Below are positions 8,686 to 15,672 of a stretch of 64,000 bases of DNA, piece by piece. Location: assembly GCF_053078305.1 (NCBI RefSeq), contig NZ_CP166879.1, one strand, 5' to 3'. The notes under the pieces were generated by a model, which was given only the letters and a program-made list of their open reading frames with translations, did no database searches and had not been told where the DNA came from. Both the position numbers and the translations under genes were made by a program. Every line of letters begins with the position of its first letter. The stretch's first letter is position 1.

Positions 8686-9258
8686 ATGACTAAGAAGCTG
8701 AAAGCAAAACACGAGGTGTTTTGTCGCGAGTTTCTTGTCGATCTGAATGCTACACAAGCAGCTATTCGCGCAGGCTACGTCTCCAGGCGAGCACATGTTA
8801 CGGGGGCTGAACTATACGGTAAACCTGAGATACGCGCCCGTATTAACGAGCTAAAGCAGGAGCGTATTGATCAACTGGGCATTGATGCGAATTATGTGCT
8901 GATGCGACTGGTTGAGATCGACAGGCTCGATGTGGCTGACATCCTGGAGGACGATTTAAGTATTAAGCCTCTGTCTGCGTGGCCGGAATCGTGGCGTCGG
9001 TACCTGAGTGGATTTAACCTCGCTGAAATGTTTGAGGGGCGAGGAGATGACAGAGAAATGGTCGGGATCCTTAAAAAGATTAAGTGGCCTGATAAGGTTA
9101 AAAACCTTGAGTTGCTTGGGCGTCATGTTTCTGTTCAGGCGTTTAAAGACAACGTCAAAAATGAAGTGACTGGCGCTGATGGAGGACCCGTCAGAACAGA
9201 AATTACCAACTTAACGCCGGAGCAGGCTGCAGAAGCGTATAAAAAAATGATGGGCTAA
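8686..9258 (+). CDS. Terminase small subunit (P27-type)
   Basis: 190 aa; position before large terminase; family from recall. Confidence 0.75.
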
Positions 9259-9260
9259 GT

Positions 9261-10883
9261 ATGCCGTTACCATTTCACTTCGATTTTAAACATCCTGATT
9301 ACCAGATGGTTTTTGAATGGCGGATGGAACGCTTACAGCGCATTCGCCAGAACCCTGAAATATTGCCCGTATTGAAGCAGTTTTACCGAACCAATCCGGC
9401 TCAGTTCATCATCGACTGGGGCATGACAACGGACCCGCGTAATATTGATTATGGCCTGCCGGTGACCATTCCGTTTTTACTCTTCCCTAAGCAGGAGGAG
9501 TGGATCCACTGGATTATGGAACGCTGGGGCAATCGGGAGAATGGTATTACCGAAAAATCCCGTGAAATGGGGCTCAGTTGGACCGCGATCGGACTGGCCT
9601 GCTCGCTTTGTCTCTTCAACAAAGAAATGGTTATCGGTTTCGGCTCCCGTAAAGAGGAATACGTCGACAGCACCGGTGACCCGAAAGCATTGTTCTGGAA
9701 GGCACGCAAGTTCGTGGAAACGCTACCTGTAGAGTTTCGCGGTTCGTGGAGCGAGAAGAAGCACGCGCCATATATGCGTGTTGAGTTTCCTGAAACTGGT
9801 GCCGTTATCAAAGGCGAGGCTGGCGATAATATTGGTCGTGGTGACCGTACCACGCTTTATCTGGTTGATGAGGCTGCATTCCTTCAGCGTCCTCTGCTGA
9901 TTGATGCGGCGTTGTCACAAACGACGCGTTGCCGTATCGACCTGAGTTCAGTTAACGGCATGGCTAACCCGTTCGCTCAGAAGCGTCATGGCGGGAAGAT
10001 ACCGGTATTCACATTCCACTGGCGGGATGATCCTCGCAAGGATGAAGAGTGGTATCGCAGGGAATGCGAGAAAATCGATAATCCGGTGGTGGTGGCACAG
10101 GAACTTGATCTGAACTACAGCGCATCAGCGGAAGGCGTTCTGATTCCATCCGAATGGGTACAGGCTGCCGTTGATGCGCATATCAAACTGGGTATCCAGC
10201 CAACAGGCAAACGACTTGGCGCGATGGATGTCGCCGACGAAGGCAGGGACAAAAATGCCTTTTCCACCCGTCATGGCTTCCTCCTGGAAAATGTGCGGGA
10301 ATGGTCCGGTGTGGGCAGCGACATTTATCAGTCCGTCGAGAAGGTTTTCGGCTTTTGCGAACAGGACAACCTCGAAGAGTTTCGCTTTGACGAGGACGGG
10401 CTGGGCGCTGGCGTTCGCGGCGATGCACGCGCTATCAACGAACTGCGTAACGCTGCGCGTCGACCGTCAATACTTGCCACACCGTTTCGAGGTAGTGGCG
10501 CGGTATTTGATCCGGATGATGAAGCTGTTCGCGGGGACAACGGGCAAGCCGCGCGTCTGAACAAGGACTTCTTCGCTAACGCCAAAGCCCAGAGCTGGTG
10601 GCGGTTACGTAAACTTTTTCAGAATACCTGGCGCGCCGTGGTTGAAGGTATGGCTTACAACCCGGACGAAATCATCTCAATCAGCAGTAGCATGGCACTC
10701 AAAGATCAACTCATCATCGAGCTTTCGCAGCCGACCTATTCCATTAATGGTGTGGGAAAAATCGTTATTGATAAACAGCCTGATGGGACCCGGTCGCCAA
10801 ATCTTGCCGACTCGGTGATGATCAACTATGCCCCAATGAATTCAGCCCTGAACATCTGGGAGTTGCTAGGGAGACAGGCCTGA
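9261..10883 (+). CDS. Terminase large subunit
   Basis: 540 aa; position and size; followed by portal. Confidence 0.8.
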
Positions 10884-12349
10884 TGGCACGAAACAAACAA
10901 GCCCTGCGGCGAACTGCGCAGGCCACAGCTGATGGTTATGAGAATTTTATCGCCCGCGTAGGGATGCAGACACCTAACCAGCACTCAGCATCCACCTACC
11001 GGGCTAATTTCACCAGTCGTAACCGCATGCTGGTGGAATGGTCCTATCGTTCTTCCTGGATCATCGGCGAAGCAGTCGATGCTATCCCGGATGATATGAC
11101 CCGCAAAGGCATTCGCATCACTTCGGAAATTGATGCAAAAGATCGTGGCATTCTCGAATCACAACTGGATGAGTTGCAAATCTGGGATGCGCTGAATGAC
11201 GTGCTGAAATGGTCGCGCCTCTACGGCGGCGCGGTGGGTTTCATCATGATTGAGGGGCAGGCACCAATGACCCCGCTGCGACCCGAAACCATCGGTAAGG
11301 GCAAGTTTAAGGGGATTCTCCCGCTCGACCGCTGGATGATTGACCCGGTACTGACCCGCCGCATTAAAGATATGGGGCCGGACCTGGGTAAACCTGAGTT
11401 TTATGATGTGGTGACCACAGCAACGGGAATTCCTGCCTGGCGCATTCATCACAGTCGCCTGATTCGCTTTGATGGCGTCACGCTGCCATTTCAGCAGAAG
11501 ATGACCGAGAACGAATGGGGAATGTCGGTTGTAGAGCGTATCTGGGATCGTCTTACCGCGTTCGACAGCGCTACTGTCGGTGCGGCGCAGCTGGTCTACA
11601 AGGCGCATTTGCGTACCTACAGCGTGGAGAAGCTACGCGAGCTTATCGCACTTGGTGGTCCTGCGTATGAAGCGTTGCTGAAGAATATTGACCTGATTCG
11701 ACAGTTCCAGAGCAATGAAGGCATGACTCTCATGGACTCGCGGGATAAGTTTGAAACCCATCAGTACAGCTTCAGTGGTCTGGATGACATCCTTTCACAG
11801 TTTGCAGAACAGATTAGTGGAGCTGTTGGTATCCCACTGGTGCGGTTGTTCGGACAGTCCCCGAAGGGATTTTCTACCGGCGATGCAGACCTTGCCAACT
11901 ATTACGACCGGGTAAGTTCGTTGCAGGAGAGGCGTTTACGTCTTCCGGTGCGGCGGATACTGGACATCATGCATCGTTCGGAACTTGGCAAGCCGCTCCC
12001 GGATGATTTCACATTTGAGTTTAACCCGCTCTGGCAAATGTCTGATGTCGATCGTTCAACGGTGGCATTAAATACCACCAACGCAATCAGTACAGCGCTG
12101 GGTGATGGTCTGATGACACTGAAAGCTGCTATGACTGATTTGCGCGAAAATTCTGACGTAACCGGCATCGGGGCATCCATTACCGACGAGGACATCGAGA
12201 ATGCCGAAGACGAAGCGCCGCCCGGCATCGGCGAACCTGATGACGAACCGCAGGAACCGTCAGGCGGAAATCCGCTATCGAACCAGCCTACGCAGGATAG
12301 CGCGGGCGGTCGGGGACATCGTAAATGGTCGCTACGATGGTTCAAATGA
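10883..12349 (+). CDS. Portal protein
   Basis: 488 aa with acidic low-complexity C-terminus; follows terminase. Confidence 0.75.
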   Translation: MARNKQALRRTAQATADGYENFIARVGMQTPNQHSASTYRANFTSRNRMLVEWSYRSSWIIGEAVDAIPDDMTRKGIRITSEIDAKDRGILESQLDELQIWDALNDVLKWSRLYGGAVGFIMIEGQAPMTPLRPETIGKGKFKGILPLDRWMIDPVLTRRIKDMGPDLGKPEFYDVVTTATGIPAWRIHHSRLIRFDGVTLPFQQKMTENEWGMSVVERIWDRLTAFDSATVGAAQLVYKAHLRTYSVEKLRELIALGGPAYEALLKNIDLIRQFQSNEGMTLMDSRDKFETHQYSFSGLDDILSQFAEQISGAVGIPLVRLFGQSPKGFSTGDADLANYYDRVSSLQERRLRLPVRRILDIMHRSELGKPLPDDFTFEFNPLWQMSDVDRSTVALNTTNAISTALGDGLMTLKAAMTDLRENSDVTGIGASITDEDIENAEDEAPPGIGEPDDEPQEPSGGNPLSNQPTQDSAGGRGHRKWSLRWFK

Positions 12350-12974
12350 CAGTATCACGGAAATTATTGAGACGCTGGAACGCTACAGTGAAATCATAAC
12401 CCCCTGGGCGACAAAGGTCGCGGAAAACTTTACCGCCGACATTGTACGCAAGAATGATGAGCAGTGGCGTAAACACAGCAAAACCATCAGCCGTGAGCTA
12501 CGCAATCTGGTAAACAGTGCCCCTCCAGGGCAGGTGATGAAATCCATCGTTGCTGAACAGGTTAAGTACATCAAATCGCTACCCCTCGAGGCGGCTGACA
12601 GGGTGTACGACATCCAGAATCGGGCGATAGAAGCTGTTGTTACCGGTGGGAGAGCGGAACATTTTGCTAAAGAAATAGCCGCATCGGGTGATATAGCAAA
12701 GTCCAGAGCTGACCTGATTGCCCGTACTGAACTTGGACGTGCAACCGGCGCGCTGGATCAGGCGCGTGCGCTGTCAATTGGTTCGAATGGTTATATCTGG
12801 CGTACAGCCGAAGATGGTGATGTCAGGCATTCTCATCGGGAAATGGAAGGTAAATTTGTCGAATGGGGCAAACCTCCAACGCTTGACGGCATGACAGGTC
12901 ACGCTGGCGAGCTCCCGAATTGTCGCTGTTATAAAGAAATTGTTTTTCCCACCTCCCATTCTTACCCCGCCTGA
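12201..12974 (+). CDS. Head morphogenesis protein (Mu F / SPP1 gp7 family)
   Basis: Motif region WRTAEDGDVRHSHREMEGKFVEWGKPP; start uncertain, the annotated ATG overlaps the portal gene by 149 nt. Confidence 0.65.
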   Translation: MPKTKRRPASANLMTNRRNRQAEIRYRTSLRRIARAVGDIVNGRYDGSNDSITEIIETLERYSEIITPWATKVAENFTADIVRKNDEQWRKHSKTISRELRNLVNSAPPGQVMKSIVAEQVKYIKSLPLEAADRVYDIQNRAIEAVVTGGRAEHFAKEIAASGDIAKSRADLIARTELGRATGALDQARALSIGSNGYIWRTAEDGDVRHSHREMEGKFVEWGKPPTLDGMTGHAGELPNCRCYKEIVFPTSHSYPA

Positions 12975-12988
12975 ATCGCAGGTAACAC

Positions 12989-14209
12989 ATGAAATATTTT
13001 TTCAATACCCGGCTGGGGGAAACCCGCTATCAGCTGGCTGACGGCTCGTTGCTGTGCAAAGACGTGCCGATAGGACGAACAGGTAAGCAGCTCTATGGTG
13101 CTGATGACCTGCCAAAACTGAAACCCGATAAGTTCGGTGAAATAGTCGTCACGCGTTCTCCTGAGCAGGTATTCCATCCCGCCACGCTTGCCTCATTCGA
13201 AGGAATGAGTATCACGGTGTTGCATCCCGAGGATGAAAACGGGGATGTGCGGCTGGTGAATCCAGAGAACTGGAAAGAGCTCGCGGTCGGGCATCTTCAG
13301 AATGTCCGGCGCGGGGCGGGTGTGCAGTCTGATTTGATGCTGGCTGACCTTATCGTCAAAGACGAAAACGCCATTCAGCTGATCGAAGATGGCCTGCGCG
13401 AAGTGTCGTGTGGCTATGACGCGGAATATAAACAGGCTGAGCCGGGTAAGGCTCAGCAGGTCGCTATTACCGGAAACCATGTGGCTCTTGTCCCTAAAGG
13501 CAGAGCCGGAAATCGTTGTGCAATTGGAGACAGAGACACAATGGCAAATCAAAAGAAAAGCTGGTGGACCCGCATGCGCACGGCCATCAAAACGGGTGAC
13601 GCTGACACCATGAACGAACTGGTGGAGTCGGCTCCCGCATCGGTTACAGGAGATGAGGGGGATTTGCCGCAGGGCGTTAATCTCAACATCAACCTGTCCC
13701 CGCAGCAACCGCTACCGGACAAAGCACCAGAGATGGGCGGAGGTCCAACCGGCGACAGTGATGATGACCTCAAAACATTACTGAAAGCCCTGCTGGCTAA
13801 GCTGGAAGGAAATGCGACGGGCGATAACGACAATAAGCCTGACGATAATCCGACCGGTGACGGCGAGGACGATGAAGAGGAAACCACGATTACTGGTGAC
13901 TCAGCCTGGCGTGCCGAAGTTATCGTTCCGGGTATCGATCTGAGCCGTAAGATGAAACCGACCGCGTTCAAACGTGAGGTTCTGGCTTCTGCTGACAAAA
14001 CGCTGGTTCGCCAGATAGTCGGTGATGCGGATATCCGCAAATTGCCGAAACAATCGGTCGACATGGCGTTTAATGCCGTGTCTGAGATTGCCAAAGGGCG
14101 AAACACCCGCGCCACCACCGGCGATGCACAGCGCCCAAACATGGGCATGACCAGTATCGCTTCCCTGAACAAACAAAACGCTGAATTCTGGGCAAACCGT
14201 AAAGGGTAA
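12989..14209 (+). CDS. Putative prohead protease/scaffold protein (Mu gpI-like)
   Basis: 406 aa with acidic low-complexity segment; gene order. Confidence 0.45.
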   Translation: MKYFFNTRLGETRYQLADGSLLCKDVPIGRTGKQLYGADDLPKLKPDKFGEIVVTRSPEQVFHPATLASFEGMSITVLHPEDENGDVRLVNPENWKELAVGHLQNVRRGAGVQSDLMLADLIVKDENAIQLIEDGLREVSCGYDAEYKQAEPGKAQQVAITGNHVALVPKGRAGNRCAIGDRDTMANQKKSWWTRMRTAIKTGDADTMNELVESAPASVTGDEGDLPQGVNLNINLSPQQPLPDKAPEMGGGPTGDSDDDLKTLLKALLAKLEGNATGDNDNKPDDNPTGDGEDDEEETTITGDSAWRAEVIVPGIDLSRKMKPTAFKREVLASADKTLVRQIVGDADIRKLPKQSVDMAFNAVSEIAKGRNTRATTGDAQRPNMGMTSIASLNKQNAEFWANRKG

Positions 14210-14212
14210 AAA

Positions 14213-14719
14213 ATGAATAATGTATTTCTGTACCGGATGCCTGTTGGCATTGCCGGGGCCGTCTCTCGCCCGCAGGACTTAACCGTCGAACCGGTGGTCC
14301 TTAAATCCGATAACGCCTTCGCTGCCTATGGCCTGGCTGGTAAATACGATGATGACGGTTTTTTCGTGCCGCTGGCAGATGGTGATACCGCAGACAAGGT
14401 GAAGGGGATCTACGTGCGCCCTTATCCGACCACTTCGCAGCCGGACATGGTTCGCCAGGTGGGGACTGGCAAGAACTTCCCGGGCGACGCCATGAAGCGT
14501 GGCTACGTGACCGTTAATCTCGGTTCTGATTTTGATGCCAGCACCATCAAAAAAGGCGACCCGGTATACGTTGTCGTCTCCACTGATGAATCCATCAAAG
14601 TGCCGCTGGGTGGATTCATGGCCACGTCAGTCAGTGGCAAAAACGTGGTGCTGACCAACGCTGAATTCACAGGTGCCGGAGATGCTGACGGCAATGCAGA
14701 AATTTCCTGGAAGATTTAA
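14213..14719 (+). CDS. Putative capsid structural or decoration protein
   Basis: 168 aa; between scaffold and major capsid. Confidence 0.4.
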   Translation: MNNVFLYRMPVGIAGAVSRPQDLTVEPVVLKSDNAFAAYGLAGKYDDDGFFVPLADGDTADKVKGIYVRPYPTTSQPDMVRQVGTGKNFPGDAMKRGYVTVNLGSDFDASTIKKGDPVYVVVSTDESIKVPLGGFMATSVSGKNVVLTNAEFTGAGDADGNAEISWKI

Positions 14720-14730
14720 GGAACAGACGA

Positions 14731-15672
14731 ATGATTACTTTTGATCAGGCAACCGTTGACAGCTCTGGTGCCTTTCTCATCGGGGAGCTGGAGCGACTCG
14801 ACCAGACGCTGAACCTGCCACTGGTGGGGTACACCTGGACCCGCGATATTCAGTTGCGTGAAGATGTCTCCATCGCAGATGACATTTCCAGCTGGACGAA
14901 TACCAGCTTCGCCGCTGCGGGTACTGGTGCAAATCCGAATGGCAAAAACTGGGTAGGCAAAGACTCAACCGCTATTGCTGGCGTGAACGTGGATATCGGC
15001 AAATCCGGTAACCCGATGAACCTGTGGGGGATGGAACTTGGCTGGACGGTCATAGAATTGCAGGCTGCTCAGCAGATCGGACGCCCGATTGATACGCAGA
15101 AGTATGACGGGATGCAACTGAAATGGCAGATGGATAACGATGAACAGGTATATGTTGGCGATTCCGCATTAAACCTGAAAGGTCTTGTTACCCTGGACGG
15201 CGTGCCTGTCAACAACGCTGCCAAAACGTGGGCAACCTCAACACCGGACGAAATCCGCGCAAGCATTAACCAGGTGCTGTCTGATGCGTGGGCCGCTTCC
15301 GGTTACTCTGTGGTTCCGCGTGATTTGCTGATCCCGCCTGAGCAGTTTGCTCTGTTGTCCAGCATCATCGTTTCATCTGCGGGTAACCAGTCCCTGTTGA
15401 CGTACCTTCAGACCAACACCATCAGCTATCACCAGAACGGTGTTCCGCTGAATATCCGCGCGGTTAAATGGCTGAAAGGCCGTGGTGTGGGGAATAAGGA
15501 TCGCATGGTTGCGTACACCAACGATAAAAAATACGTCCGCTACCCGCTGGTTCCGCTTCAGAGCGTGCCGGTGCAGTATCGCGGTCTGTATCAGATCGTC
15601 ACTTACTACGGCAAGCTGGGTGCGGTTGAGCCAGTGTACAAAGAAACCATTTCGTACGTTGATGGCATTTAA
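14731..15672 (+). CDS. Putative major capsid protein
   Basis: 313 aa; gene order in head module. Confidence 0.5.
   Translation: MITFDQATVDSSGAFLIGELERLDQTLNLPLVGYTWTRDIQLREDVSIADDISSWTNTSFAAAGTGANPNGKNWVGKDSTAIAGVNVDIGKSGNPMNLWGMELGWTVIELQAAQQIGRPIDTQKYDGMQLKWQMDNDEQVYVGDSALNLKGLVTLDGVPVNNAAKTWATSTPDEIRASINQVLSDAWAASGYSVVPRDLLIPPEQFALLSSIIVSSAGNQSLLTYLQTNTISYHQNGVPLNIRAVKWLKGRGVGNKDRMVAYTNDKKYVRYPLVPLQSVPVQYRGLYQIVTYYGKLGAVEPVYKETISYVDGI

Follow-up and report, generated by a model that had tools for sequence, protein, structure and literature searches.

The portal gene and the adjoining Mu F-like gene of a prophage head module of Escherichia coli share 149 nucleotides (nt) that are most probably dual-coding in the full sense. 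In the window, by which we mean the whole 64,000-nt stretch of DNA analysed (contig NZ_CP166879.1, assembly GCF_053078305.1), the shared segment covers positions 12201-12349 of the plus strand, where portal residues 440-488 are read in frame 0 and residues 1-49 of the Mu F-like protein, called MuF below, are read in frame +1 from an ATG at 12201. A preliminary description of this DNA had proposed a 149-nt overlap of the two genes in different frames, and its coordinates turn out to be exact. That description had left the choice between two genes that overlap extensively and a MuF protein initiated at a non-ATG codon beyond the portal stop; homologue alignments, a conserved ATG preceded by a conserved Shine-Dalgarno (SD) sequence, and selection on both frames support the first possibility. 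The overlap is of an ordinary kind but unusually long for genes on the same strand. It is a well-supported long same-strand overlap in a prophage and introduces no new mechanism or kind of feature.

Protein profiles place both gene products in known head protein families. The portal protein (10883-12349, plus strand, 488 residues) matches PF06381 (Phage_portal_3 / DUF1073) with E=6.8e-106, its residues 55-402 aligning to profile positions 7-355 of 357, and phrog_146 with E=3.5e-174. Solved portals match it at E=2.7e-37, but these relatives, like the Pam3 portal 8hds, span residues 15-452 only and leave the tail uncovered. MuF (12201-12974, plus strand, 257 residues) is a Mu F-like or SPP1 gp7-like minor head (head morphogenesis) protein. 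It matches PF04233 over residues 137-243 (E=2e-17; 64.4 bits for a cut-off of 29.6) and phrog_324 over residues 8-255 (E=2.4e-90), and its gene adjoins the portal gene in all loci examined, so that profile and position agree on its membership of the Mu F-like family. Its residues 1-257 are matched by tblastn in nearly all of 80 viral loci, and a sequence search of the PDB with MuF gave no match.

The MuF frame opens at 12162 and ends at 12974. Direct reading of 12162-12349 finds ATG 12201 and ATG 12240 as the only ATG, GTG or TTG codons in this frame, which agrees with the earlier claim that they are the only in-frame ATG candidates. They lie, as was also claimed, within an acidic carboxyl-terminal tail of the portal, DEDIENAEDEAPPGIGEPDDEPQEP. 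The portal stop codon, TGA 12347-12349, corresponds to MuF residue 50. In 28 of 75 distinct related sequences it is replaced by CGA followed by TAG, which makes the tail one residue longer and the overlap 152 nt. These 75 sequences, which include phages SEN34, yong1 and Omnitron, Klebsiella phages GZ7 and Mulock, and IMG/VR contigs, always have an overlap of 149 or 152 nt. In about 40 species of Enterobacterales its length is 137-164 nt, the value of 164 nt coming from a few loci where the automatically picked start is an ATG 15 nt further upstream. Klebsiella-type sequences have gaps of 4, 2 and 3 nt within the overlap, 9 nt in total, by which both frames are restored. The region is present in 338 of 5,426 complete E. 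coli genomes.

Over the other 208 codons of the MuF gene, the portal phase meets 17 stops and never remains open beyond 29 codons. When MuF residues 1-50 are recoded synonymously, this phase stays open for 49 codons in only 2.3% of cases. In a single genome an overlap arising by chance is mildly improbable. A chance origin becomes implausible since the overlap is kept at 149 or 152 nt in 75 of 75 sequences and at 137-164 nt across the Enterobacterales.

The conserved part of MuF begins well inside the portal gene. Searched with phmmer, a set of 1.8 billion representative proteins yielded 6,991 relatives. Among the divergent homologues with the best scores (36-50% identity), most have alignments that begin at about query residue 13-25, which corresponds approximately to window positions 12240-12275. 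Their amino termini have a basic tail followed by the motif R.AE..Y...LR.IA..VG.IV, present in all 29 homologues aligned and found in the window at MuF residues 19-41 (12255-12323). Within it, L30 (12288-12290) is invariant in the 29-sequence alignment. PHROG profiles align to MuF from residue 8 in the case of phrog_324 or from residues 19-22. An AlphaFold2 model built on the same alignment has a mean predicted local distance difference test (pLDDT) score of 89.5 and a predicted template modelling (pTM) score of 0.83. Its first helix is formed by residues 10-44, with pLDDT of 95-97 over residues 21-50 and low confidence over residues 1-20, and is separated from helix 2 by a loop of residues 45-48 (YDGS). 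The confident part of helix 1, residues 20-44, is encoded at 12258-12332 on the plus strand, where the AlphaFold2 model coincides with the family motif and where nucleotide changes concentrate at MuF third positions. A conserved part of the downstream protein is thus encoded before the stop codon of the upstream gene, as the alignments, L30 and helix 10-44 all indicate. The preliminary description had offered a conserved domain beginning after 12349 as the observation that would speak against an overlap; alignment of homologues gives the opposite, with conservation beginning about 95 nt before the portal stop.

These data bear directly on the reading that denies any real overlap, with MuF initiated beyond the portal stop from a codon that is rare or not ATG and with an upstream frame open by chance. 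Public records lend it some weight: the annotated MuF start of phages SEN34, yong1 and Mulock lies after the portal stop, and that of vB_EcoM-606R2 is a GTG 95 nt past it. Moreover, large surveys found annotated same-strand overlaps above 60 nt to be mispredictions in every case (PMC2478687). Against it, the codons used in those phage records are not available in the window, where the equivalents of their ATG (at 12366) and GTG (at 12444) are ATT and GTA. The first canonical starts of the MuF frame after 12349 are GTG 12534 and ATG 12537, and initiation at GTG 12534 would cost the protein 111 conserved residues and four predicted helices. Helix 1 and the invariant L30 are encoded before 12349, and substitutions follow the periodicity of the MuF frame from about 12250. 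We therefore reject a MuF start downstream of the portal stop, the least probable of the readings considered here.

The dispersion of the annotated starts may itself stem from the overlap. Public records use at least six different start codons for the MuF gene, most of which deprive this conserved virion protein of its first helix or helices. Besides the starts past the portal stop, gene calls in metagenomes leave overlaps of 44-53 nt, the NCBI Prokaryotic Genome Annotation Pipeline (PGAP) starts the protein at 12240 with an overlap of 110 nt, and the record of Klebsiella phage GZ7 starts at an ATG that precedes the conserved one by 15 nt, for an overlap of 164 nt. Six differing starts are the expected product of an overlap cap in gene finders; the truncations would follow from the 60 nt to which Prodigal limits same-strand overlaps.

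Substitutions in the 75 sequences were counted by parsimony to compare the constraint on the two frames. The scan of viral contigs yielded only close relatives (87-99% identity) and served for these counts, not for the question of origin. With a +1 offset, the third position of each MuF codon falls on the first position of a portal codon and each portal third position on the second position of a MuF codon, so almost no site of the overlap is silent in both frames. Total change within the overlap amounts to 1.19 parsimony changes per site, versus 1.7-1.9 in both flanks, and at about 12250 the periodicity of substitutions ceases to follow the portal frame and takes on that of MuF. Portal third positions accumulate 4.59 changes per site in the portal-only region (n=90), 1.17 at 12203-12238 (n=12; p=6e-5, Mann-Whitney) and 1.15 at 12239-12346 (p=1.5e-9). 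MuF third positions have 3.65 changes per site downstream of the overlap, 0.83 at 12204-12239 (p=1.4e-5) and 2.41 at 12240-12329 (p=0.005). Under the five portal codons for L-R-W-F-K (12332-12344) their individual counts are 2, 0, 0, 1 and 0 (p=0.0013). Synonymous change is depressed in each frame, the mark of purifying selection on both, and the portal tail is therefore also under selection. Constraint is partitioned along the overlap, with relaxed stretches of either frame lying against strict stretches of the other. Opposite MuF helix 1 the portal protein varies freely (for example GGNPLSNQPTQ versus GGDPISNEPTA) by substitutions that leave the MuF protein unaltered, so that a strict helix runs under a variable portal tail; further on, the strict portal LRWF lies over the MuF loop.

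The same counts help to choose between the two ATG codons. The most likely MuF start, ATG 12201-12203 (plus strand), is invariant in 75 of 75 sequences, with no change at the portal-synonymous site 12202. It is preceded at 8 nt by the SD sequence GAGGA (12188-12192, plus strand), which lies within the portal codons D-E-D. GAGGA is likewise invariant in the 75 sequences, its portal-synonymous site 12190 included (0 changes), while the portal third positions neighbouring 12190 and 12202 have 3-10 changes. The same ATG and SD, with overlaps of 149-155 nt, are found in Yersinia and Serratia loci and in an unassigned metagenomic contig (L093) with 58-61% portal identity. In most of the approximately 40 Enterobacterales species an ATG aligned with 12201 and preceded by an SD-like motif is the start chosen automatically. 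A conserved start and its ribosome-binding site are thus found inside the upstream gene.

In an alternative reading that keeps a genuine overlap, MuF begins at ATG 12240-12242 (plus strand), which would give a protein of 244 residues and a 110-nt overlap, or both ATGs are used. RefSeq adopts ATG 12240 for WP_000184962.1, PGAP placing the start there in E. coli CB9615 and ETEC-2264 (coding sequence 1841-2575 of loci L094 and L095); CB9615, of serotype O55:H7, matches the window in this region with 99.8% identity. The motif common to the whole family begins only at residues 19-22 and would be retained from either ATG, and AlphaFold2 confidence is low over residues 1-20. However, this ATG is confined to close E. 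coli relatives: its equivalent is TCG, ACA or GCG in SEN34, yong1 and Omnitron, and it is missing from the Klebsiella type and from Yersinia and Serratia. No SD precedes it. The portal-synonymous sites between the two ATGs are depressed about four-fold, a drop to be expected only if the MuF frame is already read there. We consequently privilege ATG 12201 and hold exclusive or shared use of ATG 12240 to be improbable, though it is the strongest of the rival readings and would itself leave the genes overlapping.

Several points weigh against the interpretation defended here. RefSeq picks ATG 12240, and both starts could be used. The SD and ATG 12201 fall within codons of a conserved portal peptide, DEDIENA, so that only sites 12190 and 12202 speak independently of the portal frame. 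The publication on SEN34 was checked for virion proteomics and contains none; the assignment of the start rests on sequence and model. The p-values of the parsimony counts are approximate, as they derive from one neighbour-joining tree of recombining prophages. Finally, both the direction of overprinting and a role of the overlap in setting an expression ratio, discussed below, are inferred.

In frame 0 the portal tail is an acidic, proline-rich linker ending in LRWFK, while the same DNA read in frame +1 gives the basic tail of MuF and then helix 1. The terminal portal motif L-R-W-F(K) is encoded by CTACGATGGTTCA (12332-12344, plus strand), which in the MuF frame specifies the loop (R)Y-D-G-S. 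The 13-mer is unchanged in 7 relatives, the most divergent of which have about 70% DNA identity. At the protein level, nearly all Enterobacterales portals retain LRWF, and the ending LRWF(K/R) persists in portals as divergent as 58% identity. YDGS in MuF is conserved only within the clade that has the overlap.

Such freezing of nucleotides might reflect an RNA or DNA element instead of dual coding, for example the hairpin CATCGT(N11)ACGATG predicted at 12316-12340. Its 6-bp stem has arms that never vary, and the 13-mer is nearly invariant. Yet no pair covaries in the alignment and the consensus energy is weak (-9.64 kcal/mol, with a covariation term of +0.77). Changes at the frozen sites would alter a portal Arg, Trp or Phe or create stops in one of the frames, so coding constraint explains them, and we consider an element of this kind very unlikely to be the cause of the conservation. 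The candidate hairpin extends from the last part of MuF helix 1 into the portal codons for LRW; as its arms are invariant, covariation speaks neither for it nor against it. Around the start, predicted folding is no more stable than that of shuffled sequences (z=+1.12).

The +1 position of MuF relative to the portal invites another explanation, a programmed +1 ribosomal frameshift that would produce a portal-MuF fusion, as in phages whose portal has a MuF domain at its carboxyl terminus. PHROG families of such fusions exist (phrog_2662, phrog_859 and phrog_12) and match MuF residues 19-248 and other stretches. In addition, public assemblies contain four fused proteins of 655-697 residues (P0151, P0153, P0155 and P0157). 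These four are singletons with four different junctions, DSAG|VGDIV, AEDEA|RPAS, DEDI|VNGH and GELG|RQNR, which argues for indels or errors rather than a shared shift site. They are probably indels or sequencing or assembly errors, although naturally fused variants may exist. The protein with junction DEDI|VNGH (P0155, 655 residues) corresponds to a 124-nt deletion between the copies of GGACATCG at 12190 and 12314. In line with these differing junctions, no single conserved shift site is found and the stop context varies (TGA, or CGA then TAG). The alignment holds no covarying RNA structure, and a fusion would need neither the conserved SD and ATG nor the constraint on the MuF frame from 12203. 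The odds of programmed frameshifting are accordingly slight. As a separate observation, GGACATCG (extended form GGACATCGnnAATG) is a direct repeat at 12190-12197 and 12314-12321, close to both ends of the overlap.

Coupling by termination and reinitiation was also considered and does not apply because the MuF start lies 146 nt upstream of the portal stop codon, not within a few nt of it. Coupling of the ATGA type, with a 4-nt overlap, occurs only in distant relatives. We favour instead an independent translation of MuF, which would start at ATG 12201 by means of its own SD within the portal DEDIENA codons and would require neither frameshifting nor reinitiation at the portal stop. Ribosomes translating the portal would traverse the MuF ribosome-binding site and may thereby hold the output of MuF below that of the portal. 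A lower output would fit a capsid protein present in few copies and bound to the portal, like gp7 and gp6 of SPP1 (PMC6316719).

How the overlap may have formed is suggested by its graded length in relatives, drawn from a scan of genome collections (58 loci over a wide range of species) pooled with further loci. No overlap exists in a metagenomic relative with a 2-nt spacer (L087) or in Pseudomonas putida (L126). A 4-nt overlap (ATGA), with MuF in the other frame offset, is found in Pseudodesulfovibrio, Desulfovibrio and Gallionella (L142, L146, L149), overlaps of approximately 17-29 nt in alphaproteobacterial loci (L101, L140, L143), overlaps of 62-125 nt in Burkholderia, Pseudomonas, Dyella and Acinetobacter, and those of 137-164 nt in Enterobacterales. 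All these classes have the MuF helix motif and the LRWF tail is confined to Enterobacterales, which would make the portal tail the younger reading over an older MuF amino terminus. The portal gene was thus probably extended at its 3' end over the beginning of MuF. In several Acinetobacter prophages (L135, L136, L147; positions ~2183-2259) the MuF open reading frame (ORF) opens 3 nt before a lone ATG that precedes the motif, which forces an overlap of 74 nt. These loci represent a shorter and independent form of the arrangement that lacks the LRWF tail.

The composition of the two tails may have eased such an extension. Acidic GAN codons are read in frame +1 as ANG codons (Lys, Arg, Thr, Met), so the 5' end of the overlap would be easily tolerated. 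One stretch, GAA GAC GAA GCG CCG in the portal frame and AAG ACG AAG CGC CGC in the MuF frame, encodes the acidic linker of the portal as well as the basic tail of MuF; relatives without overlap have an acidic linker and a basic tail on separate DNA. One further locus deserves mention for its label. A 799-kb contig named Chryseobacterium sp. 18061 (CACSKA010000001.1, locus L129) has a junction of the Citrobacter/Enterobacter type with an LRWFTGKR tail and a 149-nt overlap, which suggests that the assembly is mislabelled or contaminated.

The two genes are part of a run of head genes on the plus strand. The portal gene is preceded by genes for the small terminase (8686-9258) and the large terminase (9261-10883, 540 residues). 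The latter owes its name to a homologue in phage records; it has no Pfam match at E<=0.01 and is labelled 'hypothetical protein' in RefSeq. Its TGA stop and the portal ATG overlap by one base, in TGATG at 10881-10885. MuF is followed by a gene for a DUF2213 protein (12989-14209) and by two more head genes (14213-14719 and 14731-15672). Two antisense ORFs, one of 147 residues inside portal/MuF (11902-12345, minus strand) and one of 233 residues inside the DUF2213 gene (13549-14250, minus strand), are probably spurious open frames.

A literature search for a description of a portal/MuF overlap found none. Adoption of the conserved ATG as the start would correct a widespread family of annotations. 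At this locus the selection acting on each frame of a long same-strand overlap can be told apart, which makes it a clean natural case, and its graded relatives show how a carboxyl-terminal extension can grow over a neighbouring gene. We put forward more tentatively a wider view, in which the LRWF tail would be a functional peptide born by overprinting of the older MuF amino terminus. The Enterobacterales overlap of 137-164 nt would then be one of the longest stretches of bacterial or prophage DNA verified to code in two frames of the same strand, far above the reported ceiling of about 60 nt for genuine overlaps. It might also fix the ratio of portal to MuF expression and keep two interacting head proteins genetically inseparable.

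The closest functional parallel is found in SPP1. In the available text of PMC6316719, gp7 binds the portal protein gp6 and enters the procapsid in few copies, which makes a tight genetic linkage of portal and MuF sensible. The gene order is the same in both systems, with the portal followed directly by a PF04233 protein. The portal studied here belongs to a different Pfam family, PF06381, and that text mentions no long overlap between gp6 and gp7. The portal-MuF fusions of phrog_2662, phrog_859 and phrog_12 couple the same domains, MuF residues 19-248 corresponding to positions 489-708 of a fused profile. Here, by contrast, the two proteins occupy separate frames, MuF has its own SD and ATG, and fused versions appear only as singleton indel variants.

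Long overlaps are well known in viruses, and short same-strand overlaps are common. Overprinted viral genes resemble the present case in combining an older frame found throughout a family, here MuF helix 1, with a lineage-restricted one, here the LRWF tail. The pattern matches an origin by loss of the stop codon between adjacent genes in different frames, one of the classes of overlap origin distinguished in PMC2268670. The difference is that no new gene arose in the prophage, only a 49-residue carboxyl-terminal extension of an existing protein. Among bacterial genes, a survey of 338 prokaryotic genomes retained no real same-strand overlap above 60 nt, the longest real one being that of holD and rimI with 32-56 nt (PMC2478687). 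As in the portal/MuF pair, the 3' end of holD and the 5' end of rimI are read in two frames and the segment is conserved at the nucleotide level among Enterobacteria (PMC2478687), but their overlap of 32-56 nt compares with one of 149 nt in the window and of 137-164 nt across the Enterobacterales.

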